A stretch of DNA of 64,000 nucleotides from an uncultured Actinomycetota bacterium (GCA_963726575.1 CAVSCR010000007.1:475555-539554), one strand, 5' to 3'; counted from the stretch's first letter, positions 3,441 to 56,198 are shown. The notes: a model not told the origin generated them from the letters alone. Numbers and translations: made by a program.

Positions 3441-4013
3441 AGTGGCAAGCCGTGGCTTGCCGCACCAGGTCGCGGAACGGCTCAGCGGCGTTCGAGCGCC
3501 GTGGGCGGTGGCAGCGGGTGGGCTCTCGACCTGTTCGCCGGCGGACAGTCGCGCGAACACGAGGATCTCGAGATCGCTGTTCCGATCAGACGGTTCGAGG
3601 AAGTGCAGTCGAGGCTGGGCGAGTACGACTTCGAGGTGGTCGGCGCCGGACACGCATGGTCGCTCGACAGCGGAGCCTTCGACGTGATGGTGCAGACGTG
3701 GATGAGTGACCACACCACGGGCGTGCATCTGCTAGACGTGTTCCGCGAGCCGCACGACGGCGACACCTGGATCTGCCGACGAGATCCCAGCATTCGCCGT
3801 CCGTACAGCGACATCATCGAGACGACCGGCGACGGCATCCCCTACGTCGTTCCCGAAGTGGTGTTGCTGTTCAAGGCGAAGCACACTCGCGAGAAGGACG
3901 AAGCGGACTTCCGCCGGGTACTACCCATGCTCGACGACCAACGACGGGCATGGCTGTGGGAGTCGCTCACAGCTGTTCATCCCGGGCACGCGTGGCTGGC
4001 CGCACTGGCCTGA
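3440..4013 (+). pseudogene. Nucleotidyltransferase, ANT(2'')-like (PF10706-like), N-terminus frameshifted
   Basis: ERLSGVRAPWAVAAGG in one frame continues as GGSGWALDLFAGGQSREHEDLEIAVP in another. From memory this resembles the aminoglycoside 2''-adenylyltransferase motif PLWIGGGWAIDARLG...HDDIDL, but the database match is not verified. The C-terminal 160 aa are intact in the 2901 frame. Confidence 0.45.
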
Positions 4014-4962: not shown

Positions 4963-5038
4963 TGGCGCGCCCGGAGGGATTCGAACCCCCAACCTTCTGA
5001 TCCGTAGTCAGATGCTCTATCCGTTGAGCTACGGGCGC
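4963..5038 (-). tRNA. tRNA-Arg (anticodon ACG)
   Basis: Cloverleaf read by eye on the minus strand: acceptor GCGCCCG/CGGGCGC, anticodon arm TCTGA-CTACGGA-TCAGA, T-arm GGTTCGAATCC, CCA encoded. Confidence 0.85.
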
Positions 5039-5145
5039 AGTGGTCGCCTGACCAGGCGCTGAGTGTAGCCGCCGTCGTAACGCGATCGAAATTCCACCGG
5101 GCCCAGGGGCCGGTGTCGGGATGAGCTCGTACCGTCAAACGACAA

Positions 5146-5172
5146 GAGCCCCGGCGGGCTACCGGGGCTCTG
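5146..5172 (-). terminator. Candidate intrinsic terminator hairpin immediately 3' of tRNA-Ser (GAGCCCCGG-loop-CCGGGGCTC)
   Basis: Perfect 9-bp GC-rich inverted repeat followed on the minus strand by cttgtcgttt. Confidence 0.4.
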
Positions 5173-5175
5173 ACG

Positions 5176-5266
5176 CGGAGGCGGCGGGATTTGAACCCGC
5201 GAGGGGCTTTGAGTCCCCAACCCGCTTAGCAGGCGGGCGCCATAAACCGGGCTAGGCGACGCCTCC
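5176..5266 (-). tRNA. tRNA-Ser (anticodon GCT), long variable arm
   Basis: Acceptor GGAGGCG/CGCCTCC, anticodon loop CTGCTAA, extra arm, T-loop GGTTCAAATCC. Confidence 0.85.
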
Positions 5267-5397: not shown

Positions 5398-6403
5398 GTG
5401 ACCACTACCGTCCGGATCCTGCGCAACGGCGTGTTCGAGCCACGGAGTGCGGACAAAGCCGCCGGGCTCGCCGCAGCCAAGGAGCCGGACACCTGCGTGT
5501 GGTTCGACTCCGACGTCCACGACGTGCGTGACCTCGCGGCCCTGCTGGGCTTCAACCCACACGCCATCGAGGACGCGACTGAAGCCGAGCACGAAGACCG
5601 TCGACGTGGCGCAGCGGGCGAAGCTGGAGCGCTACCCCGGTCATGTCTTCTTGTACCTGTACCGAGCACGCGTGAAGGAAGACGGCAATGTCGCCCTGCA
5701 CGACATCCCGGTGTTCGCGACGCCGCACGTGGTCGTCGCGTTGGACCGCAGCGATGCGTACGGCGTCACGGAGCTGGACGAACGGTGGGATGCCCACCCC
5801 GAGCTCCTGAAGTACGGGACGCCCGCGTTGCTGCACGCGATCCTCGACCTGGTGATCGACTCCCAGCTCGCGGCCGTCGACGCGCTCAGCGACTCGGTGG
5901 ACTCCCTCGAGGATGCGCTGTTCGACAGGAGCGACCTGGCCAAGGACGACGGCATGGACCTGCCGCGGCGCGGGTACGCCACGCGCAAGGCGCTCGTCCG
6001 GCTGCGGCGGGTGGTGCAGCCGATGCGCGAGATCGTCAACGGGATCATGCGGCGTGAGGAGGACGACGCCACACCGATCGACAGTGCGTTGATGCCTTAC
6101 TACCAGGACCTGTACGACCACACGCTGCGGACCAGCGAGACCATCGAGGGTCTGCGCGACTTGCTCACCACGATCTACGAGACGCGCCTCGCCATGGCCG
6201 ACCACACGATGAACACGGTCATGAAGAAGCTCACCGGCTGGGCCGCCATCATCGCCGTGCCCACCGCCGTGACTGGCTTCTACGGCCAGAACGTCTTGTA
6301 CCCGGGCTTCCTCAGCCACTGGGCGTTCCTCTTCAGCACTGCCGTCTGGGGCGGTTTGTCGCTCGTGCTGTTCGTCGCGTTTCGCCGCCGCCGCTGGATC
6401 TGA
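5398..6403 (+). pseudogene. corA: CorA-family Mg2+/Co2+ transporter with a +/-1 frameshift near 5590
   Basis: The N-terminus (VWFDSDVHDVRDLAALLGFNPHAIEDATEAEHED) is in frame 1. The rest (VDVAQRAKLERYPGHVFLYLY ... FYGQNV ... two C-terminal TMs) is in frame 2 through to 6403. A 1-nt indel lies between the codons for EHEDR and VDVAQ. Confidence 0.7.
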
Positions 6404-6620
6404 CCGTTGGATCCGGCCGGCCCCCTAGTCGTCGATCTTGGCTGAGACGACGAAACCAGCTGCAGGAGCTGGGGTTCCGGGTCGTCCACCTCGAGAAGTC
6501 CCTGCTCACCTCGCGTCATGAGGTGGTTCGCACGATCGCCGCAGTACTGCGGTTGCAGGGGTGGGTCGGAGACCCCGACTTCACGTTCAACAGTGACTGG
6601 GCGCCAGGGCCCGAACCCCG

Positions 6621-6696
6621 TGTTGATCTAGGAGATGATGCTGGCTTTTCAAGATCAACTTACACATCAAGTCCAAGATCAACTTTGGTTTGGGTT
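6621..6696. repeat. AT-rich conserved intergenic element, copy A (TGTTGATC ... CAAGATCAAC-N14-CAAGATCAAC)
   Basis: About 85% identical over ~75 nt to 47136-47210. It is ~35% GC in a ~70% GC background and lies between the convergent corA and CFA-synthase genes. Confidence 0.6.
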
Positions 6697-7946
6697 ACCA
6701 GGTGGGGCGCAGGGGCATGTCGCTGACGCCGCGACGCCTCAGCCGCACCCCCAGCACCTGGTGCAGCTGGATCCGGTTCAGGTCGAACCCGACCCGGGAC
6801 GCCGCCATGTAGAGCCGCCAGACGCGCGCCTTCGCCACGCCGACCTCGGAGACGGCGGGTTCCCACTCGCGATTGAGGTTGGCTCCCCAGTCGCGCAGCG
6901 TCATGGCGTAGTGCTCGCGCAGGTTCTCCTCGTGTCGGATCTCGAAGCCGTTGTCGTTCATCGCCTCCATGATCGTCGCCGGGCTGCTGAGCTCACCGTC
7001 GGGGAAGATGTAGCGGTCGATGAAGCCGCCTGCCTTGGCCCGCTCGTGACCGTTGGGCCGGGTGATGCAGTGGTTCAGCAGTCGTCCGCCCGGGCGCACC
7101 TTGGAGTGCAGCCGGGCGAAGTACGACGGGTAGTTGCGTCGTCCGATGTGTTCGGTCAGTCCGATGGACGAGACGGCGTCGAAGGCCGACTCAGGCACGT
7201 CGCGGTAGTCGAGGAAGCGCACCTCGGCGCGGTCGGACAGGCCGCGCTCCGCGATCGCCTTGTTCGCCCACTCAGCCTGTCGGCGCGACAAGGTGACGCC
7301 GATCGCATGCACGTCGTAGTGCTCTGCCGCGTGCATGACCATGCCGCCCCACCCGCAGCCGACGTCGAGCAGGCGCATGCCGGAGTCGAGTCCGAGCTTG
7401 CGGGCCACCAGGTCGTACTTGGTGCTCTGAGCAGCCTCCAACGACGCGTCCGCGGTCGGGTAGACAGCACACGTGTAGGTCATCGACGGCCCGAGGACCA
7501 TGGCGTAGAAGGCGTTCGACACGTCGTAGTGGTGCGAGATGGCGGCCGCGTCGCGGCTCTTGGAGTGACGTCGTCCGCGCAGGAAGGGGTGCGGCGCCTC
7601 GAGCGTCGGGATCGGCGGTCGCTTGATGACGCGCAGGCCGTAGCCACGCAAGAGCTCGGTGGCTTGAGCCCACGGGACGCGGCGCCGCTCCTCGCCGACG
7701 AGCGCGCGTAGACCCGTGTAGAGGTCGCCGACCACCTCGAGCGAACCGGAGACGAACGCCCGGGCGACCCCGAGGTCGCCGGGGGCCGTAGCGATGTACT
7801 GCACGGCCTTCTCGTCGACAAGTCTCAGCGTCACCGGTGCGTCGGCGCGGACCGGCGCTGCTGCCGTCGTAGGCCTCGAACCGCACGTCGTTGGTCGGGC
7901 CAACGAAGGTTTCGAAGATGTCAGCGAGTTGCGGAGATCCGGACAT
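6695..7946 (-). pseudogene. cfa: Cyclopropane-fatty-acyl-phospholipid synthase family SAM-dependent methyltransferase, frameshift near 7845
   Basis: MSGSPQLADIFETFVGPTNDVRFEAYDGSSAGP is in one frame. The continuation VRADAPVTLRLVDEKAVQYIATAPGDLG ... VGCGWGGMVMHAAEHYDVHAIGVTLS is in the frame of ORF 6695..8008. Confidence 0.7.
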
Positions 7947-13455: not shown

Positions 13456-14817
13456 TCCGCCTGCCAGTCGTTCCACACGCGCGTGCAGCCAACCCAACGT
13501 CGTCTCGCTCTCTGGCTTGAGCAGGACGCTGCGCAAGATCCTTGGCCGTTCGACGTCGGCCACGATCCCGGGACACGCGTGCGCAAGCTGATCACCGGTG
13601 ACTCGCAGCGTCGACAGGTACACCGGGTCGATCGCGTCGTCCATGCCTTCGGTGAGCATCCTCGCCGACTCCCGGTCCACCGCCGACGCGGTCGCGCGTC
13701 GGGGCAGATAGGTGACGATGTCGGTCGCCGGTGGGACGAAGGGAGCCAGAACCTGCGACGTCTCCAGCAGTTCGTGCCAGCGCACCGCTGCTCGCCGTCC
13801 CGCCGCCAGCCCGGCGCCCAGGCCGTCGTGGCTCAGCGGGAACACCTGCAGGGTGAGCCACAGTGCCGCCGCAGCCGCGCCGGCGCGCGAGCATTCGAGG
13901 CTGATCTCACCGAGGTGCAGCTCGTCGGACGTGAAGTACGTGTACGGGGAGTCGTGCGCGTAGAAGCGACCGACGGCCGGATCACGGAACAACACTGCTC
14001 CGCACCCGTAGGGCTGCAACCCGTGCTTGTGGGGGTCAACGACCACCGAATCCGCCTGCGCGATCGCCAGCCACGGCGGCGGCTCGACGCCGCCGGCAGC
14101 GTCAGACGCGCCCGTCGCCAGCAGCCGGAAGAATCCGCCGTACGCCGCATCGACGTGGACCCGTGCACCGTACTCATGCGCCAAGGGCACGATCGCGTCG
14201 ATCGGATCCACTGCGCCGAGTCCGGTCGTGGCTGCGGTCGCGACGACTGTTCCGACCGTGCCCGTCGCCAACACGTCACGGAGTGCGGCGACGTCCATGC
14301 GGCCTGCGTCGTCGGTCGGCACCGGAGTCGACTCGATGCCGAGGAGACGACACATCCTGGCGTGGGTGTAGTGGCTGTCGACGGAGAAGGCGACGCCGGC
14401 GCGGGGGTGGAGTTCGCGCGCCACGAACAGCGCCTCCAGGTTCGCGATGGTTCCGCTGCTGGTGAGGTGACCGAGGTGCTGTTCGAAGCCGAACATGGCG
14501 GCGAGGTCGGCCACCACCTCCTTCTCCATGCGCGCCGTCGCGGGTCCACCGTCGAGCGCGTGGTTGTTCGGGTTGATGAGCATCGTGGCCAGGTAGCCCA
14601 CCACGGCCACCGGGTGCGGCGGCTTGAGCATCTGCCCGGCATAGCGAGGGTGGTGGAAGGGGTAGTTGTCGCCCAGTCGGTCGACGAGGTGCTCCAGGGC
14701 GCTCGCCAGCCTCGCCTCGTCGACCACCTGGGAGGAATGCGGCTCGAACTGACCGGCCTGCGACTGCCAGTCCTGGACCGCCTCGACCGCACGCGTGGTC
14801 CAGACGTTCAGGTCCAC
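13435..14817 (-). CDS. Pyridoxal-phosphate-dependent group II decarboxylase (aspartate/glutamate/diaminobutyrate decarboxylase family)
   Basis: YPFHHPRYAGQMLKPP, SVDSHYTHARM and a PLP-lysine region. The ORF track extends to 14988 across a tRNA gene, so the start was trimmed to the GTG at 14817. Confidence 0.75.
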   Translation of the reverse strand: MDLNVWTTRAVEAVQDWQSQAGQFEPHSSQVVDEARLASALEHLVDRLGDNYPFHHPRYAGQMLKPPHPVAVVGYLATMLINPNNHALDGGPATARMEKEVVADLAAMFGFEQHLGHLTSSGTIANLEALFVARELHPRAGVAFSVDSHYTHARMCRLLGIESTPVPTDDAGRMDVAALRDVLATGTVGTVVATAATTGLGAVDPIDAIVPLAHEYGARVHVDAAYGGFFRLLATGASDAAGGVEPPPWLAIAQADSVVVDPHKHGLQPYGCGAVLFRDPAVGRFYAHDSPYTYFTSDELHLGEISLECSRAGAAAAALWLTLQVFPLSHDGLGAGLAAGRRAAVRWHELLETSQVLAPFVPPATDIVTYLPRRATASAVDRESARMLTEGMDDAIDPVYLSTLRVTGDQLAHACPGIVADVERPRILRSVLLKPESETTLGWLHARVERLAGGSQVDHG

Positions 14818-14841
14818 GCGTCCGCCCTTCGGCCGGTCGGC

Positions 14842-14925
14842 GGCGAGGGAGGGATTTGAACCCCCGGAGGATCGCTCCTCAGACGCTTTCAAGGCGCCCG
14901 CATTAGGCCGCTCTGCCACCTCGCC
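14842..14925 (-). tRNA. tRNA-Ser (anticodon TGA), long variable arm
   Basis: rc = GGCGAGGTGGCAGAGCGGCCTAATGCGGGCGCCTTGAAAGCG...GGTTCAAATCCCTCCCTCGCC, with anticodon loop CTTGAAA. Confidence 0.8.
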
Positions 14926-15032
14926 CGGTGCTCCGGCGAGCAGGCTAGCGTCCGGCCGACCTGTGCCGCGGATTCTGCTCCGGCGCACCTGCGTGCGAGA
15001 CTGCCAGGCGTTGTTCCCCCGCCAGGAAGAAG

Positions 15033-16058
15033 ATGATGGACGGCAACGCCAGCTATCGCCACGCCAATACCGCCGTTCTCTCGGTCACTGCCGTGAAGGC
15101 GCCCCAGGTGGTGACGTCGGCCCAGTTCGACGAGGTGCTCGAACCTACGTTTCGGCGTCTGGGCCTGCGGCCCGGCCTGCTCGAAGGGCTCGCTGGGATC
15201 TACGAACGCCGCTGGTGGCCCGAGGGCTACCACTTCACGGACGCGGCTGCTGCCGCCGGCGAGTCCGCACTCGAGGCCGCCGGGATCGAGCGCGACCGCA
15301 TCGGCCTGATGATCAACTCCTCCATCTCGCGCGAGTACCTCGAGCCTTCGTCAGCTGTGAAGATCCACCACGACCTCCGGCTGCCGACCTCGGCCACGAA
15401 CTTCGACCTCGCCAATGCCTGCCTCGGGTTCATGAACGGCATGCACCTCGCTGCGTCGATGATCGATGCGGGCCACATCGACTACGCCCTCGTCGTGGAC
15501 GGCGAGGATGCGCGAGCCGTCCAGGAGTCCACCCTCGCTCGCCTCTCGCGCGACCACGTGACCACCGAAGACCTGTTCAGCGAGTTCGCCTGCCTGACGC
15601 TCGGATCCGGAGCGGCGGCGATGGTGCTGGGGCGCGCGGACCGGCACCCGGAGGGTCACCGACTGGTCGGCGGCATCTCGCGGGCGGCTACCGAGCACCA
15701 CATGCTCTGTATCGGTGACAACGAGCACATGACCACCGACACCAAGGGCCTGCTCGACGCTGGGCTGGAGCTCGCCGAGTCGGCCTGGAAGGAAGCGCTG
15801 GTCGACTTCGACTGGCGCGACATGGACTGCTACGTCCTGCACCAGGTGTCGCGCGTCCATACCGAGTCGTTGTGTGCTCGCTTGGGTATCGACTTGAAAC
15901 GTGCGCCGTTGACCTTCCCCACGTACGGCAACATCGCGTCTGCCGCATTGCCGTTCACCCTGGCACTGCAGTCCGAGCAGCTCAACGCCGGCGAGCGCGT
16001 GCTGTGCATGGGCATCGGCTCGGGACTCAACGTCGCGTTCTGTGAGATCACCTGGTGA
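15033..16058 (+). CDS. oleA: OleA, FabH-like thiolase-superfamily acyl-CoA condensing enzyme (olefin biosynthesis)
   Basis: 341-aa KAS III-like protein leading a 4-nt-overlap operon. It reads alpha/beta-hydrolase::AMP-ligase fusion, then 3beta-HSD-family reductase, which is the oleA-oleBC-oleD arrangement. Confidence 0.75.
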   Translation: MMDGNASYRHANTAVLSVTAVKAPQVVTSAQFDEVLEPTFRRLGLRPGLLEGLAGIYERRWWPEGYHFTDAAAAAGESALEAAGIERDRIGLMINSSISREYLEPSSAVKIHHDLRLPTSATNFDLANACLGFMNGMHLAASMIDAGHIDYALVVDGEDARAVQESTLARLSRDHVTTEDLFSEFACLTLGSGAAAMVLGRADRHPEGHRLVGGISRAATEHHMLCIGDNEHMTTDTKGLLDAGLELAESAWKEALVDFDWRDMDCYVLHQVSRVHTESLCARLGIDLKRAPLTFPTYGNIASAALPFTLALQSEQLNAGERVLCMGIGSGLNVAFCEITW

Positions 16059-18637
16059 CTGCCGGGCCGACCATCGCGGCGTCACTTCCCCCGCACGGCT
16101 TGCCTGGGCTCGACTCCTCGTGGTCGCGGCTGGTGGTGACCCAAGACGAGGACGATGTGAGGCACACGTGGCACGTGCTCGACACGTGGGCCCATCGAAC
16201 CGGTGCCCCGCGCCTGACCTACCTGTGCGTGCACGGCAACCCCACGTGGTCCTACCTGTGGCGCAGCCTCGCGGCCGCGATCGACCCGCGCGACCGGTTG
16301 ATCGCGGTCGACCAGCTGGGTATGGGCTTCTCTGAGCGCACGGGACAGTTCCCCCGCTTCGCCGAGCGCGTCACCCAGTTGGGGCAGCTCACGAACGCAG
16401 TCGGCGTCACCGGACAGGTCGTCACGGTGGGACACGACTGGGGTGGTGCGATCTCGCTTGCGTGGGCGTTGGACCACCGCGAGCAGCTCGCCGGCATCGT
16501 GTTGACGAACACCGCTGTCGCCCAGCCGGACGGCGCACGACCTCCGGCCCTGATCTCGCTGGTCACCTCCCGGCCGCTGCTGCGCGTGAACACGGTGCGC
16601 ACCCCGGCGTTCCTCGCCGGCACTCTTCGCCTGGCACATCCGGCGCTGCCGGACGACGTCGCGCGCGCGTACCGGGCTCCCTACCGGGGCGCTTTCCGCC
16701 GCCAGGCCATCGGTGACTTCGTCGCCGACATCCCCTTGTCGCAGGAGCATCCCAGCTACGCCGCGTTGCGCCGCGTCTCCGACGGCCTCCCGACACTTTC
16801 CGACGTACCCGCCCTGCTGCTCTGGGGCCCGCGCGACCCGGTGTTCTCCGACCGCTACCTGCGCGATCTGTTGCGCCGGCTGCCCCAGGCACAGGTGCAT
16901 CGCTTCGAAGGCGCCGGCCACCTCGTGGTGGAGGACGCTCCCGTCGCCGCGCAGGTGACTCGGTGGGTCGAGACAACGGCGCTGGCAGAAGCTGAGCCGG
17001 GGGAACCAGCTCCGCACGTCGAGGCGGCGGACGCCGAGCCTCTGTGGGCGGCCATCGATCGCCGGCGCGACGACGCGACACCGGCCGTGGTCGAGTGCGG
17101 TAGCCCGGCCCGCGTGGTGAGCTGGCGCGATCTGGCCAGCGTGGTCGACGCACTCGCCGCGGGACTGGTGGCGGACGGGCTGACCCCCGGGGACCGGGTG
17201 GCGCTGCTGGTACCGCCCGGTGCGGATCTGACCGCTCTGGTCTACGCGTGCTGGAAGGCCGGCGCCGTGATCGTGGTCGCTGATGCTGGGCTGGGTCTGC
17301 CCGGCCTTCGACGCGCTCTGCGTGGCGCACACCCCGACGTCGTGGTCGGGATCCCCCAGGCACTCGCTGCGGCCCGCCTCATGCGCCTGCCGGGGCGGTA
17401 TCTGCTGGTGGGTGGGAGCTCTCGTTGGTCGGCCAGGGCGCTGCGGGCGCGATCGGTGCGCGACGTCGTGCGCGACGGCCGCGGCCGCACCCCTCCTTCG
17501 CCGCCCGAGAGCGATGACGAAGCGGCGGTGCTGTTCACCTCTGGTGCAACCGGACCTGCCAAGGGTGTGGTCTACCGACACCGACACCTGCACGCCCAGC
17601 GAGAGATGCTCGCGACCGCGTACCAGATCACTCCCGACGACCGGCTCGTTGCAGCGTTCGCGCCGTTCGCGCTGTACGGACCCGCACTCGGCATCGGATC
17701 GGCGGTCCCGGACATGGAGGTGACCGCACCCGCGACCCTCACCGCAGCGGCGCTGGCTGACGCTGCGCAGCAGATCGACGCAACCTTGGTGTTCGCCTCG
17801 CCGGCGGCCCTGTCGAACGTGGTGGCCACCGCGTCGGAGCTGTCCGACACCCAACAGGCGACGCTGCAGCGAGTCCGGCTCCTGCTGTCCGCCGGCGCGC
17901 CCGTTCCGGTCGATGTCCTGCGCCGTGCTGCAGAGCTCTTGGGCGACGCCAGCGCGCACACGCCCTACGGCATGACCGAGGTGCTACCGGTGACCGACGT
18001 GACCTTGCCGGAGATCGAGAAGGCGGGCGTCGGCAACGGTGTCTACGTGGGGCACCCCCTCGCCGGCGTCCAGGTCGCGATCGCCCCGCTGGATGCCTCC
18101 GGCGTTCCCCTGCTCGGGTCGACGCTCGAGCCCCAGGTCAGCGGTGAGATCTGCGTCAGCGCGGCGCACGTGAAGGATCGCTACGACCAGCTGTGGGCGA
18201 CCCAGCAGGACAGCGGACAGCTGCCCGGATGGCACCGCACCGGCGACGTCGGCCACCTCGATGCCGACGGCGGGCTGTGGGTCGAGGGACGTCTGGTCCA
18301 CATCGTCGTGACGAGCCGTGGCGTCGTGACCCCGGTGGGTGTGGAAGCCCGCCTTGAGCAGCTGCCCGGAGTGCAACGGGCGGCGATCGTGGGGGTGGGA
18401 CCGGTCGGCACCCAGCAGGTGGTCGCCGTGATCGTTCCCGACGCCAAGCGCCAGGGACTGGTGGCGAGCCCAGACCTCTGCGACCAGGTGCGGGAGGCCG
18501 CCGGCGTCGCCGTTGCTGCTGTCTTGCTGCGCGACGCCCTGCCGGTGGACATCCGGCACAACGCCAAGATCGACAGAGGAGACCTGGCGCGGTGGGCGTC
18601 CGACGTCCTCGCCGGCCGGGGTGAGAGCAGGCCATGA
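16055..18637 (+). CDS. oleBC: OleBC fusion: haloalkane-dehalogenase-like alpha/beta hydrolase (OleB) fused to AMP-dependent synthetase/beta-lactone synthetase (OleC)
   Basis: N-terminal YLCVHGNPTWSYLWR (alpha/beta hydrolase). The C-terminal 550 aa form an adenylate-forming domain (LFTSGATGPAKGVVYRH ... TGD). GTGA overlap with the oleA stop. Confidence 0.8.
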   Translation: MTAGPTIAASLPPHGLPGLDSSWSRLVVTQDEDDVRHTWHVLDTWAHRTGAPRLTYLCVHGNPTWSYLWRSLAAAIDPRDRLIAVDQLGMGFSERTGQFPRFAERVTQLGQLTNAVGVTGQVVTVGHDWGGAISLAWALDHREQLAGIVLTNTAVAQPDGARPPALISLVTSRPLLRVNTVRTPAFLAGTLRLAHPALPDDVARAYRAPYRGAFRRQAIGDFVADIPLSQEHPSYAALRRVSDGLPTLSDVPALLLWGPRDPVFSDRYLRDLLRRLPQAQVHRFEGAGHLVVEDAPVAAQVTRWVETTALAEAEPGEPAPHVEAADAEPLWAAIDRRRDDATPAVVECGSPARVVSWRDLASVVDALAAGLVADGLTPGDRVALLVPPGADLTALVYACWKAGAVIVVADAGLGLPGLRRALRGAHPDVVVGIPQALAAARLMRLPGRYLLVGGSSRWSARALRARSVRDVVRDGRGRTPPSPPESDDEAAVLFTSGATGPAKGVVYRHRHLHAQREMLATAYQITPDDRLVAAFAPFALYGPALGIGSAVPDMEVTAPATLTAAALADAAQQIDATLVFASPAALSNVVATASELSDTQQATLQRVRLLLSAGAPVPVDVLRRAAELLGDASAHTPYGMTEVLPVTDVTLPEIEKAGVGNGVYVGHPLAGVQVAIAPLDASGVPLLGSTLEPQVSGEICVSAAHVKDRYDQLWATQQDSGQLPGWHRTGDVGHLDADGGLWVEGRLVHIVVTSRGVVTPVGVEARLEQLPGVQRAAIVGVGPVGTQQVVAVIVPDAKRQGLVASPDLCDQVREAAGVAVAAVLLRDALPVDIRHNAKIDRGDLARWASDVLAGRGESRP

Positions 18638-19599
18638 AGGTGCTGGTCACCGGTGCCAGCGGCATGCTCGGCACGGGTGTCGCGCAGGCACTGATCGAGC
18701 GCGGGGACGACGTCACCGTGCTGCAACGACGCCCCAGCGGCCTGCCCTGCGCAGAGATTCGGGGCGACCTCACGGACGCGACTGTCGTCAACGCTGCAGT
18801 CGTCGGGCAAGTGGCCGTGGTGCACCTCGCCGCCAAGGTCTCGGTGACCGGCCCGTGGGCGGAGTTCGCCCGGGTCAACGTGCTCGGGACTCGTGCGCTC
18901 GTGCGGGCCGCGCGCGACGCCGGCGTCGCCCGCTTCGTGCACGTGTCGTCGCCCTCGGTCGCGCACGCCGGAGACCCGCTCGTGGGAGCCGGCGCGAGCG
19001 CGGCCGACCCGGTAGCGGCTCGCGGCTCCTACGCGCGCAGCAAGGCGATGGCCGAGCTGGCTGCCCTCGACGCGGCTGACGACTCGATGTCGGTGGTCGC
19101 GGTGCGACCTCACCTGGTGTGGGGACCAGGCGACACCCAGCTCGTCGAGCGGATCGTGCAGCGGGCCTCCTCAGGACGGTTGGTGCTCATCGACGGCGGT
19201 CGCGCCCTCATCGACACCACCTACGTGACCAACGCCGTCGAGGCGCTCGTCGCGGCTCTCGACCACGCGCCCGACGTCAGCGGCCGCGCTTTCGTGGTGT
19301 CCAACGGTGAGCCACGGACCGTCGCCGAGCTGTTCGCCCGGATCTGCGCCGCTGCAGGTGTCGTCGCGCCGTCGCGTACGGTCGGGTACCCGCTGGCGCG
19401 GGCCGCCGGGTCGGTGGTGGAGCACGCGTGGTCGATGCTGCGAAGGACCGACGAACCGCCTATGACCAGCTTCCTTGCCGAGCAGCTCGCCACCGCGCAC
19501 TGGTTCGACCAGCGTGAGACGCAGCGGGCTCTGCACTGGAGCCCACGGGTCAGCCTGGCCGACGGGTTCGCGCAGCTGACCGCGTACTACACGAGATGA
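18634..19599 (+). CDS. oleD: OleD, NAD(P)-dependent 3beta-hydroxysteroid dehydrogenase/epimerase-family reductase
   Basis: Rossmann [17 protein letters not shown] overlap with the oleBC stop. Confidence 0.75.
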
Positions 19600-42961: not shown

Positions 42962-43058
42962 ACGGCGAGCCTAACCGGGGCCACGCCCTCGCCCCTCCAC
43001 CCCTCCACCCGAAGTTGATCTTGGACGCCGACGACCGCGGCAGGGCCATGGCCGGCCC

Positions 43059-44189: not shown

Positions 44190-44391
44190 GAGACAGCCCA
44201 GGCGCTGGGCCGCGCAGGATGCGGGCAGAGGGAGGCCCGGGCGCCACCGACGGGGGATGCAGTGACGCCCGGGCCTGCGTCCACGATCACCGAGGCGCAC
44301 CTGACGGGCAACCTGAACAAAGCCGGTTTGACGAAGGCTTGACCAAAGGTTCAATTCCGAATGTATGTCCGTCGAGAACGAGCGTGTTTCC

Positions 44392-46236: not shown

Positions 46237-46313
46237 AGGAGCATCGTGGCACTCCGAGATCCGCCGCGTCCTTCGGGGCGCGGCAAAGTCTTTCCCTTGA
46301 GCTGTCCCGGCAG

Positions 46314-47132
46314 TTGCGTTGCGTGAATGATGGCGTCGTGGTCGAACCAGGCGGAGTGGTCCCTCGGAAGGAGTCGTTCAACGCCGTCGCCGAGCGGTAC
46401 GACCGGTCCAGACCCGGCTACCCGGACGAGCTGGTGAAGGACCTCGTCCAGCTGGCCGAACTGCGGCCGAGCAGCAGGGTCCTCGAGATCGGGTGCGGGA
46501 CTGGCCAGCTGACGGTTCCGCTGGCTCGTACCGGCTCGAGCATCGTCGCCGTCGAACTCGGTGATCGGCTGGCCGAGCTCGCCCGGCGCAACCTCGCCGG
46601 CTTCAAGGCCGTGAGCGTCGTCAACTCCGCGTTCGAGGACTGGGCGCTGCCTGATGAACCGTTCGACTGCGTCGTCAGTGCCACGGCCTTCCACTGGCTC
46701 GACCCCGGCGTTCGTCTGGTCAAGTCGGCGCAGGCGCTGCGCGCCGGAGGCGCCATCGCGATCATCGCCACGCACCACATCGCGGGTGGCACGGACGGTT
46801 TCGATGACGCTTGCCAGCCCTGCTACACGCGTTGGACCGGGGCTGACCCCGACTTCCGGCTCCCGACCGCCGACGACGTCGAGAGCGACGACGAGCTGCA
46901 GCGGTCCGACCTGTTCGACCGGGTGACCCTGCGCAGATACGTGCGCGAGCTGCCGTACCCGACCCAGCGGCTGGCCGATCTGCTCGGGACGTTCTCACCG
47001 CATCTCGCCCTGAGCCCCGAGGCGCGCGCCGGTCTGATCGACTGCCTGTCGAACCTCGTCGACTCCGAGTTCGACGGACGGGTCACACAGCGTTACCTGA
47101 ACGAGCTGCAGGTGGCGACCAAGGTCGACTGA
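46314..47132 (+). CDS. Class I SAM-dependent methyltransferase
   Basis: Motif I VLEIGCGTGQLT. The start is uncertain: a TTG at 46314 or an internal GTG. Confidence 0.7.
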   Translation: MRCVNDGVVVEPGGVVPRKESFNAVAERYDRSRPGYPDELVKDLVQLAELRPSSRVLEIGCGTGQLTVPLARTGSSIVAVELGDRLAELARRNLAGFKAVSVVNSAFEDWALPDEPFDCVVSATAFHWLDPGVRLVKSAQALRAGGAIAIIATHHIAGGTDGFDDACQPCYTRWTGADPDFRLPTADDVESDDELQRSDLFDRVTLRRYVRELPYPTQRLADLLGTFSPHLALSPEARAGLIDCLSNLVDSEFDGRVTQRYLNELQVATKVD

Positions 47133-47135
47133 CTG

Positions 47136-47210
47136 TGTTGATCAAGGAAAAGATGTCGGGTTTTCAAGATCAACATGCACCTGAAGTCCAAGATCAACTC
47201 AAGGGTTGGG
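47136..47210. repeat. AT-rich conserved intergenic element, copy B (TGTTGATC ... CAAGATCAAC-N14-CAAGATCAAC)
   Basis: Aligns base-for-base with 6621-6696. Direct repeats CAAGATCAAC sit at 47165-47174 and 47189-47198 (24-nt start-to-start, as in copy A). It lies between the convergent methyltransferase and FAD oxidase genes and overlaps the last codons of the oxidase. Confidence 0.6.
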
Positions 47211-48533
47211 GTGGGGGTGGGGGTAGGGCAGGAGGACGCCGGGGTTGAGCAGTCCGGCGGGGTCCAGCGCATCCTTGATGGCACGCATCGCGGCGAGTTC
47301 CGCAGCCGAGCGGCTCAGCGGCAGGTCGGCGACCTTCGCGACGCCGACGCCGTGCTCCGCGCTGATCGTGCCGCCGTTCGATGCGACGAGCCGCAGCAAC
47401 GCCGCGTCCACCTCGTGGTCGTCGGGGGCGGCCCCGACGACCTCCACGTGCAGGTTGCCTTCGAGCAAGTGCCCGAACACGTACAGGTCGTGCGGCGCTG
47501 CTGCCGACGGCATCGCCTCCATCACCACGCGCAGCCGGTCCAGCGGCACACCCACGTCGAGCTTGTGCACCACTCCCAGGGTCCCCACGGCCTCGGTCTG
47601 GCGCTCGCGATAGGCCCAGAGCCGACGGTCCACCACCGCGTCGGCATCGACATCGAGCAGTGGCGCCGACGTGGTCTCGATCAGCAGGTACACCGGCCAC
47701 CGCTTCTGCAGAGGGAAGGGCAGCTCAGCGACGGTCGTCACCAGGTCCATGGCGCTGCCACCGATGAACTCGGCCGCCAGCAGATCATCCTGGTCACGGG
47801 CGATCGCCACAGCCGCGTCGATGTCACTGACCCCCACCAACGTCGTCAACCTGCCTTCGGGCAACGGCGACACCAGATGAAGGCGCACCTGCGTGATCAG
47901 GCCGAGGGTTCCTTCGCTGGCCACCATCAGGTGGCTCACGTCGAAACCTGCGGAGTCCTTGGGAAGACCGGCCAGGTGTGTCGCCACCGACCCGTCGGCC
48001 AGCACGTACTCCAGCCCGCACATCTGGCGGCGGGTGTCACCGTGTCGCACGACACGCAGTCCCCCGGCGTTCGTCGCCACGGTTCCGCCGATCGTCGCCG
48101 AGTCGCGGGCCGCGAGGTCGACCCCGTAGTCGAGACCGGCGGTCGCGGCCAGGCGTTGCACCTGCGCGATCGTCACACCTGCGCCGACCGTGACCTGTCG
48201 ACTGCTGACGTCGACAGAACCGATCGAGGTGAGACCACGGGTGGACACGATCACCATGGGCCGCGAACGTGGCACCGATGCCCCGACGAGTCCGGTGTTG
48301 CCGCCTTGCGCGACGATCGGCATGCCGAACTGCGCGCAGGTGCGAACGACCTGGCTCACCTGCGCCGTGTCGTGCGGACGGACCACTGCGGCTGCCTCCC
48401 CGCGGTAGCGACCGGTCCAGTCGATGCAATACGGAGCCCGAAGGTCGGGGTCCGTGAGCACGTCGTCGGGTCCCACGACGGCGCGCAACGCACGAGTGAG
48501 TGCCTCGGCGTCGGCAGTGCCGGGTGAACTCAC
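47199..48533 (-). CDS. FAD-linked oxidase (GlcD / D-lactate dehydrogenase-like, PCMH-type FAD binding + C-terminal oxidase domain)
   Basis: FAD-binding domain (IVAQGGNTGLVGASVP) and a C-terminal FAD-oxidase domain. Start trimmed to the GTG at 48533 that overlaps the fpg stop (GTGA). Confidence 0.8.
   Translation of the reverse strand: MSSPGTADAEALTRALRAVVGPDDVLTDPDLRAPYCIDWTGRYRGEAAAVVRPHDTAQVSQVVRTCAQFGMPIVAQGGNTGLVGASVPRSRPMVIVSTRGLTSIGSVDVSSRQVTVGAGVTIAQVQRLAATAGLDYGVDLAARDSATIGGTVATNAGGLRVVRHGDTRRQMCGLEYVLADGSVATHLAGLPKDSAGFDVSHLMVASEGTLGLITQVRLHLVSPLPEGRLTTLVGVSDIDAAVAIARDQDDLLAAEFIGGSAMDLVTTVAELPFPLQKRWPVYLLIETTSAPLLDVDADAVVDRRLWAYRERQTEAVGTLGVVHKLDVGVPLDRLRVVMEAMPSAAAPHDLYVFGHLLEGNLHVEVVGAAPDDHEVDAALLRLVASNGGTISAEHGVGVAKVADLPLSRSAAELAAMRAIKDALDPAGLLNPGVLLPYPHPHPNP
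47203..47228 (+). other. G-quadruplex-forming motif GGGTTGGGGTGGGGGTGGGGGTAGGG
   Basis: Five G-tracts of 3-5 Gs with 1-2-nt loops on the + strand. The complementary strand encodes the PYPHPHPNP C-terminus of the FAD oxidase. Confidence 0.5.
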
Positions 48534-53736: not shown

Positions 53737-56037
53737 TCAGGGCGTCAGGACCAGTGACCACGCCAGCTGGCTGCCGGAGGGCTGGTCGGTGCTGGCGGCG
53801 GTGCCCGGCACACTGCCGGGCGCGGCGGGGCCGGCGATGTCACCGATCAGGGCGTCGATGTGACCGCCACCGGTGCCGTCCGACGTCGAGCGCGCCGTCA
53901 TTCCGCTCGGGGTGATCCACCTGGTGGCGCTGGACGAACGGCTCGACCAGTACGACACCACCCACGACCCGGGGGTCGTGACGGTGGTGGCGGGGGTAGC
54001 GAACGTCGTCAGACTCGAGCTGCCGGTGCGGGCCACCGCGCTCGCCAACGGACCGGCGGCGTTGGTTCCGGAGTAGGCCAGCAGCTGCACCGTGGCCTTC
54101 GTCAACTGCGTCCCGAACGACACGGTCACGCTGTTCCCGGGGTCACTGCCGGTGGCAACGCGCTGCCACACGGTGCTGTACATGGTCGAGCTGCTCGCGG
54201 TCTTCACCACCTGCCATCCACTCGGGGCGGTCTGCGGTGTGGCTGTTGCGCTCGTGGCCACCAGGAGCAGGCCGTTACCTGCGCTCACGCTGGCCGGGAT
54301 CGTGATGGTCTGTGCCTTCGCATTTGCTGCGCTGGCGGTTGACGCAACGAATCGGATCCCGTTCCCCGGCGCGACCACGGTGACGTTGTGAGTGGTGGTC
54401 GTGACGTCGCCGCTCGAGTCGGTGATCGACAGCACCACGGCGTAGGTGCCGGGCGCCGCGAAGGTGTGGGACGTGGTGATGCCGGATCCCGCATTCACGT
54501 CACCGAAGTCCCAGGAGTAACCGGTCACGCTCGCCCCTGGGGCCGTCGAGGTCGAGGCGTCGAAGCTGCACGTCAGAGCACTGCACGACGACGTGAACGC
54601 GGCCGTCGCCGACACCACCGTGAGCTGCTGGCTCGTGGTCGCTGTGGCGCCGAGCCCGTCGCCGACGGTGACCGTGACGACGTAGGTGCCACCACTGGTG
54701 TAGTGGTGCGGGACCGAGGGCACGTCGGTGGTCTGCTGGCCCGTGCCGTCGCCGAAGTCCCACTGGTATGACGTGATGCCCGCAAGCGTTGAGCCGCTTG
54801 CATCAGCTGTGCAGTGCAGCAGGAGACACGAGACGGTCAAGGCCGCCTGGCTGGGCGGTGCGACCGTCACGATCTGTGACGCCGATGCGACCTGACCGTC
54901 GCCATCGGTCACGGTCAGCGAGGCGGAGTAGCTGCCGGCGTCGGTGTACGTGTGGGTGACAACAGCACCGCTTTGCGGTGGGCTCCCGTCCCCGAAGTCC
55001 CAGTCGTAGGACGACAGAGCTGTGCCCTGGGAGCCGGAGCCGTCGAAGGTGCACGTCAGGCCGCTGCACTGCGTGGAGATGTGAGCCGTCGGCGTGGCGG
55101 GTCCGGCCAGACCGAAGTCGGCGAGCAGGTCCGGTGCGCTGGAGGCCAGGCCCAGCTCGCTGACACCGAGCAGGTCCTCGGTGGCCCGCAACGTCGAGTA
55201 CTGCGTCAGCTTGCGGGTCGACGTCGTCCCGACGCTGTACGGGCTGATCACCAGCAGCGGGATGTGGCAGGACTGACTGGTGCTGTTCGTGCAGTCGACG
55301 CCCTTCAAGGTGCCGGCCGCTGAGCCTTCGTCGAACGTGACGATGACGACGGTCGAGCCCGAGGTGAACTCCGGGCTGTTCAGGACGGCAGGAAGGTTCG
55401 CGGACAACCACGAGTCGCCAGTGGCGATGCTGCCGCTGTGCATGTCGTTGGCAAGGTTCGGCGAGATGAACGAGAACGCCGGCAGGGTGTGGTTGGCCAA
55501 GTCGGTCGCGAGCTGGGTGTAGTTCACGTCGTTCGCCTTGCAGCTGTCCGGCGTGATGTCGGTGAAGTACAGCGCGGGGTTGTGGCGCGGCACGTACAGA
55601 CCACCGGAGTCCTGAACCCGGCGACAGGGCGTAGTCATGGACTCCTGGTACGCCCGCCAACTGCTCACCTGGGTGAACAGGTCGGGACCCGGCTTGGTGC
55701 ATGTGGTGCAGTCGGTGGCGGGAAGTTGAGCCAGAGGGAGCCCCGACAGGCCACCGATGTAGTTCGGCGCGCTCGGGTGGGTGATGCCCCACGCATTGGT
55801 GGCGGAGCCGTACTGGTTGGCCAGCGAGTTGAGGTACGGGGCCGACGACGACCCGATCACGTCGTTGTAGGAGCGGTTCTCCATCCAGACCCAGACGACG
55901 TGCTGGATCCCGCTGCGCGCCGCACCGGTCGTCGCAGCCCGCGCCACCGAGGTGGCAGTCAGCGCCCCCATCATGGAGACGACGGCCAGGGCGGACACCA
56001 CGATCGTGAGCAACGCAAGCCGGGCGGGCCTGGCCAA
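53737..56037 (-). CDS. Secreted phosphoesterase (phospholipase C / acid phosphatase family, PF04185-like) with four PKD domains and a C-terminal beta-rich domain
   Basis: Signal peptide, HVVWVWMENRSYNDV...HPSAPNY phosphoesterase motifs, then 4 repeats of the PKD consensus (YSWDFGDGS.../YQWDFGDGT...). Confidence 0.75.
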   Translation of the reverse strand: MARPARLALLTIVVSALAVVSMMGALTATSVARAATTGAARSGIQHVVWVWMENRSYNDVIGSSSAPYLNSLANQYGSATNAWGITHPSAPNYIGGLSGLPLAQLPATDCTTCTKPGPDLFTQVSSWRAYQESMTTPCRRVQDSGGLYVPRHNPALYFTDITPDSCKANDVNYTQLATDLANHTLPAFSFISPNLANDMHSGSIATGDSWLSANLPAVLNSPEFTSGSTVVIVTFDEGSAAGTLKGVDCTNSTSQSCHIPLLVISPYSVGTTSTRKLTQYSTLRATEDLLGVSELGLASSAPDLLADFGLAGPATPTAHISTQCSGLTCTFDGSGSQGTALSSYDWDFGDGSPPQSGAVVTHTYTDAGSYSASLTVTDGDGQVASASQIVTVAPPSQAALTVSCLLLHCTADASGSTLAGITSYQWDFGDGTGQQTTDVPSVPHHYTSGGTYVVTVTVGDGLGATATTSQQLTVVSATAAFTSSCSALTCSFDASTSTAPGASVTGYSWDFGDVNAGSGITTSHTFAAPGTYAVVLSITDSSGDVTTTTHNVTVVAPGNGIRFVASTASAANAKAQTITIPASVSAGNGLLLVATSATATPQTAPSGWQVVKTASSSTMYSTVWQRVATGSDPGNSVTVSFGTQLTKATVQLLAYSGTNAAGPLASAVARTGSSSLTTFATPATTVTTPGSWVVSYWSSRSSSATRWITPSGMTARSTSDGTGGGHIDALIGDIAGPAAPGSVPGTAASTDQPSGSQLAWSLVLTP

Positions 56038-56198
56038 CCGATCCCCTCCGGGCCCCCCCAGAGCTATGAGTCATGCGGCCTGGCGCGACTCACGTCCCGG
56101 CCGACACTGGCACCCTGCCACACATCGACGGGGTCGCGAACCACGGCGATCCCTCGCTGACGAGATAGATCGCCCGCTCCACGACAAAGATCGCCGAC

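Follow-up and report, generated by a model that had tools for sequence, protein, structure and literature searches.

A conserved 62-nt palindrome brackets genes for predicted AbiEi–DUF559 nucleases

Repetitive extragenic palindromic (REP) sequences have as their hallmark a conserved GTAG-like tetranucleotide 5′ of the palindrome, and Nunvar 2010 is reportedly a source on REPs and the REPIN–RAYT partnership. MITEs (miniature inverted-repeat transposable elements) are small, non-coding intergenic units with inverted ends, and insertion sequences (IS) of the IS200/IS605 kind are single-gene elements between imperfect palindromes. RAYT genes adjoin their REPINs (Bertels and Rainey 2011, PMC3116915). 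The multidomain homing endonuclease I-Bth0305I is a homodimer that leaves a footprint of ~60 bp on its pseudo-palindromic target (Taylor 2011, PMC3239194), and AbiEi and Rv2827c bind inverted repeats in their own promoters (Beck 2020, PMC7319586). Here we analysed a 64,000-nt stretch of DNA (hereafter the window) from an uncultured Actinomycetota bacterium (GCA_963726575.1, CAVSCR010000007.1:475555-539554), in which a first-pass annotation made from the sequence had picked out two intergenic copies of an AT-rich repeat. We found that this repeat is a 62-nt imperfect palindrome and that, in the sequences compared here, it is a conserved bracket of a gene, termed X, predicted to encode an AbiEi–Vsr-like nuclease.

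The two full-length copies lie where they had been reported, and at about the reported 85% identity: the cores of copy A (6622-6683) and copy B (47137-47198), both on the plus strand, differ at 10 of 62 positions (84% identity; nhmmer E values of 3e-20 and 4e-21, respectively). The description of the repeat as AT-rich also held, since no other 40-nt islands of the window are as low in GC as A and B (minima 0.32 and 0.38, the window as a whole having a GC of 0.69). As noticed before, the direct repeats of CAAGATCAAC are spaced 24 nt start to start in both (6650/6674 in A, 47165/47189 in B), with the 5′ GTTGATC as their inverted complement. Allowing at most one mismatch, CAAGATCAAC occurs nine times in the window against 1.5 expected, and none of 100 shuffles reached nine. 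Longer homologous flanks would have made both copies part of a larger repeat; the likeness of A and B stops at their flanks, beyond which there is only a G-rich tail of variable sequence. Copy A consists of two arms (6622-6640 and 6665-6683) around a middle (6641-6664) and ends 11 nt short of the minus-strand cfa stop codon (6695-6697), the interval being taken up by a short G/T tail (tttggtttggg, 6684-6694, plus strand). The cfa C-terminus, ...MPLRPTW, is common to relatives, so the G-rich sequence past 6695 is cfa coding sequence.

We located contigs of relatives via their cfa homologues; the contexts analysed throughout were short metagenome contigs or 20-kb windows, denoted here by L numbers. 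In five relatives (L139, L140-147, L148, L152 and L149) the gene order is corA > X > < cfa, and an intact X is bracketed by inverted copies of the 62-nt element, one per side, with their tails pointing outward and abutting the stop codons of the neighbouring corA and cfa genes. Identity to the window cfa is 88% in L139 (95% over the aligned C-terminal 379 codons) and 81% in L140-L147; the identity of X is 73% in L148, 54% in L152 and 53% in L149. The palindrome lies 80-175 nt upstream of the X start codon in five lineages, and a copy orthologous to A follows the cfa stop in L139, L140-147, L152 and L149. Over ~115 kb of the relatives' loci, all 12 copies found directly adjoin X.

The window holds the same cassette in ruins. 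Between corA and copy A, a pseudogene remnant of X (6442-6621, plus strand) retains only the last ~53-59 codons (~53 corresponding to 6442-6600) and matches residues 261-313 of the L140 protein at 87% identity and P0246 at 92% (tblastn). The corA-side copy is truncated (6404-6442, minus strand): what is kept is a C-rich tract (6404-6430), orthologous to 'ccggccggccccgtagtcGTTGATCTTGGAC...' of L148, and GTCGATCTTGGC (6431-6442), which equals the first 12 nt of the right arm and includes a one-mismatch match to the motif at 6431-6440. The remainder of the corA-side copy and ~260 codons of X have been deleted. Because only the tail end of X and a cut corA-side copy are left, copy A is the bracket that survives, on the cfa side, of a cassette in decay in the window genome. 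The earlier placement of A and B between convergently transcribed genes holds for both, but corA is not the immediate left neighbour of A, since the pseudogene fragment (6442-6621) and the truncated second copy (6404-6442) intervene. We conclude from the aligned loci that decay of the cassette leaves solitary and truncated copies.

A scan of metagenome contigs for CAAGATCAAC-N9-15-GTCCAAGATCAAC gave eight further distinct copies, on contigs of ~70% GC, and full-length copies number 19 in all (17 besides A and B) at at least 12 distinct loci. Each of the 19 is exactly 62 nt long and occupies an intergenic or gene-end site, and the span from GTTGATC to GATCAAC is free of insertions and deletions. 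The unit is an imperfect palindrome with 19-nt arms, GTTGATCAAGGAGAAGATG and CATGAAGTCCAAGATCAAC, around a 24-nt middle. The left arm reads GTTGATC-AA-GGA-GAAG-ATG and the right arm CAT-GAAG-TCC-AA-GATCAAC, so that GTTGATC(A/T)(A/T)GGA... and ...TCC(A/T)(A/T)GATCAAC form terminal inverted repeats; the two mismatched arm blocks have purines on the same strand in both arms. The middle comprises nine highly variable, GC-rich bases and, in the window lineage, a third CAAGATCAAC. The first-pass annotation had given 'TGTTGATC' as a shared motif, but its leading T is not conserved in the other copies. Across the 19 copies, 73% of cells are paired as the palindrome requires, compared with 21-36% for slid partners, and two-sided changes occur at three pairs (for example GTTGATC/GATCAAC to GTTGAAC/GTTCAAC in L149). 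All two-sided changes come from the single L149 lineage, so covariation is modest, and the pairing pattern would fit a hairpin or cruciform and a dimeric protein reading two half-sites equally well.

We compared the window with L139, L140 and L152 at the orthologous cfa-side site. The arms are identical at 38/38 (100%), 35/38 (92%) and 34/38 (89%) positions, respectively, whereas fourfold-degenerate sites in the last ~380 cfa codons are 66%, 52% and 52% identical; the middle is identical at 23/24, 16/24 and 11/24 positions. We conclude from these alignments that strong purifying selection acts on the arms at this orthologous site, whereas the middle drifts. The middle 'repeat' of L152 reads CAGGTTGAGA, so the direct-repeat pair is lineage-specific; neither the L152 nor the L149 version has the middle direct repeat. 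This bears on the proposal that GTTGATC could pair with either repeat to form two alternative stems, which is not supported: the second repeat is unconserved in deeper relatives, and what is conserved is the two 19-nt palindrome arms. The L149 element is GC-richer overall, with changed termini (GTTGAAC/GTTCAAC) that are common to both its copies; as judged from such comparisons, copies within one genome change in concert.

In Pfam, X homologues carry DUF559/REase_MTES_1575 at the C-terminus and AbiEi_1/AbiEi_4 at the N-terminus, and the PADLOC models for AbiEi match residues ~36-180 of X (E 1.7e-10). An AlphaFold2 model of X built with 30 homologues had a predicted local distance difference score (pLDDT) of 90 and a predicted template-modelling score (pTM) of 0.86. 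By Foldseek, the N-terminal ~190 residues match the AbiEi antitoxin 6y8q (probability 1.0) and Rv2827c (1zel), and the C-terminal ~100 residues match the catalytic domain of I-Bth0305I (3r3p) with a template-modelling (TM) score of 0.77 and a root-mean-square deviation of 2.9 Å. The acidic residues E201, D234 and E245 are invariant, as expected for a PD-(D/E)XK site. X is thus predicted to be an AbiEi-type DNA-binding half fused to a DUF559/Vsr-like nuclease of the EDxHD homing-endonuclease fold. No NCBIfam model matched X, and a search of viral contigs found no relatives of it. The family is large, with 12,478 cluster representatives at E ≤1e-30 and 38,891 at E ≤1e-10; in the full-text literature searched, DUF559 is mentioned in 25 papers, but never in a title or abstract.

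The specificity of the link between X and flanking repeats was assessed by scoring, in bits, the similarity of upstream to downstream flanks, with 36 window genes and 72 random 900-nt segments as controls. Ten of 13 X loci scored 32-109 bits. The control maximum was 28.2 bits: none of the 36 window genes exceeded it, and nor did the random segments bar one 81.8-bit outlier, which came from the X-containing loci and likely spans X. Counted as independent loci of the X family, 8 or 9 of 10 are bracketed. The X of L155, 39% identical and at another locus between a peptidase gene and an ABC-transporter cluster, lies between two 62-nt palindromes with the same termini, GTTGATCAAGGAC...GTCCTTGATCAAC. 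That of L154 (40% identical) is flanked by a different palindrome of ~67 nt; ahead of the upstream copy runs a long C-rich tandem tract, beginning directly after the neighbour's stop codon. L154, L157, L159, L160, L162 and L163 each have their own repeat pair, at 40-94 bits. Of five Tsukamurella tyrosinosolvens paralogues and one Arthrobacter paralogue, most have their own pairs; among these are a 107-nt repeat (86% identity), a 59-nt repeat (95%) and a 65-nt near-perfect palindrome (89%), as well as inverted matches of 22 and 28 nt. We conclude from these flanks that the brackets are paralogue-specific: X homologues at unrelated loci carry their own flanking pair, whose sequence differs from paralogue to paralogue.

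The described systems closest to the element include REPs and REPINs with their RAYTs. Both consist of short, extragenic, imperfect palindromes present in multiple copies mostly at gene ends; in both, a single-copy, vertically inherited nuclease gene is flanked by its own type of repeat, repeat 'flavours' differ by paralogue, the loop is more variable than the arms, and there are solo or decayed copies. However, X combines an AbiEi-like winged helix with a Vsr-like PD-(D/E)XK domain and is not an HUH/Y1 (IS200-like) transposase. The element also lacks a GTAG-type 5′ tetranucleotide (the left flanks share nothing, and the copies start with GTTGATC), it is AT-rich in the window lineage rather than G+C-rich, it has a G-rich tandem tail, and its copy number is apparently low. 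By analogy, then, the element may work like a REPIN–RAYT partnership without being a member, given the other enzyme superfamily and the missing REP hallmarks. I-Bth0305I resembles X in its Vsr-like catalytic domain, which superposes on the C-terminal domain at the TM score given above, and its ~60-bp pseudo-palindromic footprint would match the 62-bp element in size and symmetry. Its gene lies within a group I intron of a phage recA, and the enzyme cleaves the allele that lacks the intron, whereas X stands alone between chromosomal genes, its N-terminal half is of the AbiEi type and, instead of interrupting its presumed site, it is flanked by intact copies of it. AbiEi, an antitoxin of type IV toxin–antitoxin systems, is alike in sequence and fold to the N-terminal half of X, which Rv2827c matches by Foldseek, and the palindrome in the region upstream of X would make a putative operator. 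Unlike AbiEi, X has no AbiEii (DUF1814) toxin partner beside it, its C-terminal half is a nuclease and not an antitoxicity domain, a second copy of the palindrome lies downstream, and solitary copies occur elsewhere in the genome. MITEs share terminal inverted repeats with the element, but, in contrast to MITEs and IS200/IS605, we found no target-site duplication, no known transposase and long vertical persistence at one locus; the sole gene found between two copies is X, which falls outside the known transposase families.

We consider it somewhat probable that the 62-bp palindrome is the cognate site of the AbiEi–DUF559 nuclease gene cassette. On the model of AbiEi, Rv2827c and I-Bth0305I, a dimer of X would bind both arms via its winged-helix halves. 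The upstream copy could serve as an operator at which X controls its own expression, and the nuclease half may nick or cut at the palindrome. Cutting might let the cassette or single palindromes copy to new sites near gene ends or, alternatively, might generate deletions that leave solos. Under this nuclease-site model, a solitary copy would be what is left of a decayed cassette, the state that A is approaching, or else a non-autonomous copy produced in trans, in the way that REPINs are thought to be made by RAYTs. The first-pass annotation had listed a mobile or recombination site, or a site for a repeat-binding protein, among its candidates; this came closest to the evidence, although the decayed AbiEi–DUF559 gene bracketed by the element had not been seen.

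Several observations weigh against the nuclease-site model. At corA–cfa, synteny and vertical inheritance of X extend down to 53% identity, so it has not been recently mobile there, and a homologue of X lies near none of nine solitary copies (on contigs of 1-4.5 kb). No target-site duplication was found, in that no direct repeat is common to the left and right flanks of 10 aligned copies. Although the X of the window is dead, copy A has kept its arms intact, which leaves three options: a recent deletion, action of another X in trans, or a function of the arms that is independent of X. The model does not explain the constant orientation of tail to stop codon or the G-rich tandem tail. In the bracket comparison, one of 10 loci, L161 (Nonomuraea), is without a repeat, and the repeat of L158 (a ~68-nt unit) was seen by eye only. 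Finally, the flanking pairs are inverted at corA–cfa but direct at L154, L157 and L159, so a single uniform mechanism is not obvious.

The most serious competitor is an element that acts in RNA, at 3′ ends, which we regard as unlikely though far from negligible. Here the C-rich tract after the stop codon and the 62-nt imperfect hairpin would lie on the mRNA of the abutting gene and form a portable terminator (a Rho loading site with a pause hairpin), an insulator of convergent genes or a 3′ stabilizer, and X would be linked to the element only secondarily, as a toxic nuclease gene that is insulated on both sides. Such a role agrees with the tail abutting the stop codon of an inward-read gene in the first 10 of 10 copies examined and in the bracket copies, with a tract that is C-rich and G-poor in mRNA and sometimes contains stops in three frames ((CCCCTGA)x4 in L152), with the convergent genes around most copies and with the conserved palindromic symmetry; unlike the nuclease-site model, it would help to explain both the constant tail orientation against stops and the G-rich tandem tails. 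However, neither copy has a G+C-rich stem with a U-tract, and folding energies of either strand are near those of shuffled sequences (z +0.4 to -1.8 in seven of eight folds, mostly -0.6 to -1.8, with one exception at -3.5). The arms are kept as sequence, while inner helices are broken and uncompensated (for example GGA to GCA in L152), the solo at 43014 lies upstream of a gene start and not behind a stop, and the own repeat pair of each X paralogue is left unexplained. Rfam had no match to the element: at the gathering threshold only three tRNAs were returned, and at E ≤10 on 6380-6760 only chance matches of 14-15 bits. The same findings do not support a small RNA, as suggested earlier, or an intrinsic terminator. 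A 3′-end role in RNA may still exist as an additional or exapted function. Transposition by a conventional enzyme encoded elsewhere, with insertion on both sides of X by chance, we hold to be improbable. The ~13-bp terminal inverted repeats, the small size, the multiple intergenic loci, and copy B and the solo as insertions relative to related genomes are all as expected for it. But target-site duplications are lacking, BLAST against 72,556 plasmid and 50,697 phage records gave no match, and a transposase adjoins none of the copies. Moreover, both brackets of X persist in place across lineages whose synonymous sites are saturated, pairs specific to each of several unrelated paralogues would not be expected from chance double insertions, and variation is concentrated in the middle and not spread as in a recent burst.

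Two further readings can be largely set aside. A small protein gene, with AAGGAG, an ATG, three variable codons and then QDQHAHEVQDQ..., is very improbable. Most window-type copies do have the Shine–Dalgarno-like AAGGAG and the ATG, and the variable part is exactly 9 nt, or three codons. Yet the ATG is replaced by ACG in L132 and GTG in L123, AAGGAG becomes AAGCAG or ATGCAG in L152, the frame is lost in L149 and L152, and elsewhere it runs on variably, antisense into the neighbouring gene; AAGGAG lies just 3 nt from the ATG, and differences in the conserved part are non-synonymous. A/T-ending codons are unchanged there in a genome with a GC content at third codon positions (GC3) near 0.86, which argues for selection on the nucleotide sequence. 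The first-pass preference for a multi-copy nucleic-acid element over a peptide gene is thus upheld. That annotation had also allowed for a mere local duplication, and the window by itself, with only two full copies in 64 kb, could suggest a duplication without function or chance similarity. This we judge the least probable reading of all, and it is refuted by the 17 further full-length copies in other contigs, loci and genomes, by a motif count above all 100 shuffles and by arm identities far above that of synonymous sites.

More tentatively, and with rather more doubt than confidence, AbiEi–DUF559 genes could constitute an unrecognized selfish or domesticated cassette of actinomycetes, in which a nuclease sits within its own ~60-bp palindromes, inserts at gene ends and seeds solos by decay or in trans, in the manner of REPIN–RAYT but with a different enzyme. 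The result may point to a repeat-plus-nuclease system in a large uncharacterized protein family. If so, it would give a first functional handle on the very large DUF559/AbiEi-domain family, and partnerships of a palindrome with its own nuclease, so far tied to HUH transposases (RAYTs), would have arisen with PD-(D/E)XK enzymes too. For annotation, the element accounts for AT-rich or oddly conserved intergenic islands at stop codons in high-GC actinobacterial genomes and for short stretches added to the C-termini of neighbouring proteins, an example being PYPHPHPNP on the flavin adenine dinucleotide (FAD) oxidase beside copy B.

Copy B exactly occupies the interval from the stop codon of a class I S-adenosylmethionine (SAM) methyltransferase gene (47130-47132) to that of the FAD oxidase gene (47199-47201), and its G-rich tandem tail, roughly (gggggt)x3, occupies 47199-47225 (plus strand). 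The methyltransferase gene itself (46314-47132, plus strand; Pfam Methyltransf_11, E 4.6e-16) is regarded here as context of the element. In the relatives L116-119, L136 and L137, the FAD-oxidase and GDPD genes lie 13-33 nt apart on one strand, and copy B is absent from this junction. The window carries instead a lineage-specific insert of ~970 bp (46254-47225), made up of the opposite-strand methyltransferase gene, copy B and the tail, and this insert replaces the last three FAD-oxidase codons. Compared with these genomes, copy B therefore stands alone at an insertion specific to the lineage. The nine variable bases of B (TCGGGTTTT) equal those of the corA-side bracket of L139 and L148, a hint that it derives from a corA-side bracket copy; it may have moved alone, moved with the methyltransferase gene or be a remnant of another, decayed cassette. 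As a left bracket for the methyltransferase gene we considered CTCCGAGATC (46251-46260), with 11 of 14 positions agreeing with the inner end of the L140 variant; we regard the match as no more than suggestive and make no claim of it. A small hairpin, ccgcgtccttcggggcgcgg, also lies in the insert (46264-46283).

On its right side the core usually carries a tail of 6-35 nt that is rich in G and in many cases a short tandem repeat whose unit differs per locus; this tail extends as far as the stop codon of the gene that is read towards it. Units include (gggggt)x3, (ggtggagg)x2, (ggggtca)x4, an 18-mer x2, a 12-mer x2.5 and (cagcgccccc)n, and the sites are 47199-47225 and 42977-43013 in the window, 10985-11020 in L152, the right of the core in L121, 12460-12495 in L140, 2767-2830 in L154 and 1610-1900 in L157. 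The tail is always G-rich on the strand reading GTTGATCAAGGAG..., and hence C-rich in the mRNA of the abutting gene. It can turn coding: the complement of the copy B tail encodes the last nine FAD-oxidase residues (PYPHPHPNP) and the stop, so that the protein ends ...NPGVLLPYPHPHPNP, against ...NPGVLLPLTS in the 69% identical L136 relative. X paralogues of Tsukamurella adjoin arrays of ~20-nt GGGGGA-N-TCGGCG units.

With two full and two truncated copies, the window holds one further remnant besides that next to corA. This solo (42977-43026, minus strand) consists of the right-arm 13-mer GTCCAAGATCAAC (43014-43026) and a G-rich tail that is C-rich on the plus strand (42977-43013), and it lies within an insertion of ~85 nt flanked by a DUF4446 gene and a gene for a membrane protein; L136, whose orthologous spacer measures 48 nt, lacks the insertion. 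Both truncated copies (6431-6442 and 43014-43026) keep the tail and the outermost 12-13 nt of the right arm, so the element may have a favoured internal break point. That two independent truncations fall at one point is suggestive but non-significant, with a chance of ~5% by rough estimate. Directly before the C-rich tract of the corA-side remnant, at 6393-6422, there is an imperfect 13-nt tandem duplication of the corA 3′ end (ctggatctgaccg / ttggatccggccg), which is also found in L148 (6415-6445) and is absent from L139, L149 and L152. A few kilobases past corA, L140 has genes for a tyrosine integrase, a TrwC-type relaxase/helicase and an HTH_17 protein (14810-19538), which suggests an integrative element; in its place, the window has tRNA-Arg and tRNA-Ser genes upstream of corA (4963-5266).

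Other classes of element were considered and rejected. An intrinsic terminator was dismissed as both copies lack a stem with a U-tract; the TTTT of A and B lies in the variable middle and is absent from most copies. For a promoter with TTGATC as -35 box on either strand, spacing and -10 box are unconserved, and a scan for sigma-70-like promoters found none. No match to a tRNA fragment, an att site or a dif-like site was seen by eye. Integron attC sites have the consensus RYYYAAC on the ORF (open reading frame)-proximal side and GTTRRRY on the distal side; by inspection, GTTGATC...GATCAAC shows the reverse arrangement in either orientation, and GTTGATC misfits GTTRRRY. BLAST with the consensus found nothing among the plasmids and, among the phages, no more than chance matches of 34 nt, and a literature search on the element's sequence words returned primers only. 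A scan of a genome collection for CAAGATCAAC-N10-18-CAAGATCAAC gave no true copy among the matches listed, which were mostly coding coincidences, including a Rhizobiales gene, QDQ-rich repeats and a 3′-end tandem duplication of a Mycobacterium tuf. Actinobacterial CAAGATCAAC repeats in L017, L018, L024, L043, L061, L072, L107 and L110 come from the same scan, have another architecture and no nearby X homologue, and were regarded as unrelated.

L072, L107 and L110 (Mycobacteriales or actinomycete metagenome-assembled genomes) share another conserved unit, CAAGATCAAC-N10-CAAGATCAAC-(t/a)NNcggctacgcggtgcatttagg, behind the 3′ ends of similar ORFs; this unit has no relation to the 62-nt element and may mark where an insertion sequence ends. 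In L069 (Mycobacterium sp. URHD0025, 3520-3660), the last 27 nt of an apparent tuf gene (...aagatcaacaagtag plus 12 nt) are repeated about four times past the stop, followed by an inverted GTTGATC; the tuf (EF-Tu) call comes from reading the 3′ end and not from annotation. The window contains a third AT-rich island at 44326-44378 (minimum GC 0.40), between the stop codons of a membrane-protein gene and a SEC-C/DUF5926 gene, which is without the GATCAAC motif and unrelated to the 62-nt element. At 53737-56070, a long minus-strand ORF has an odd codon-position composition (GC at first, second and third positions of 0.55, 0.61 and 0.88), and the opposite strand of the same interval carries several short ORFs of high GC3.

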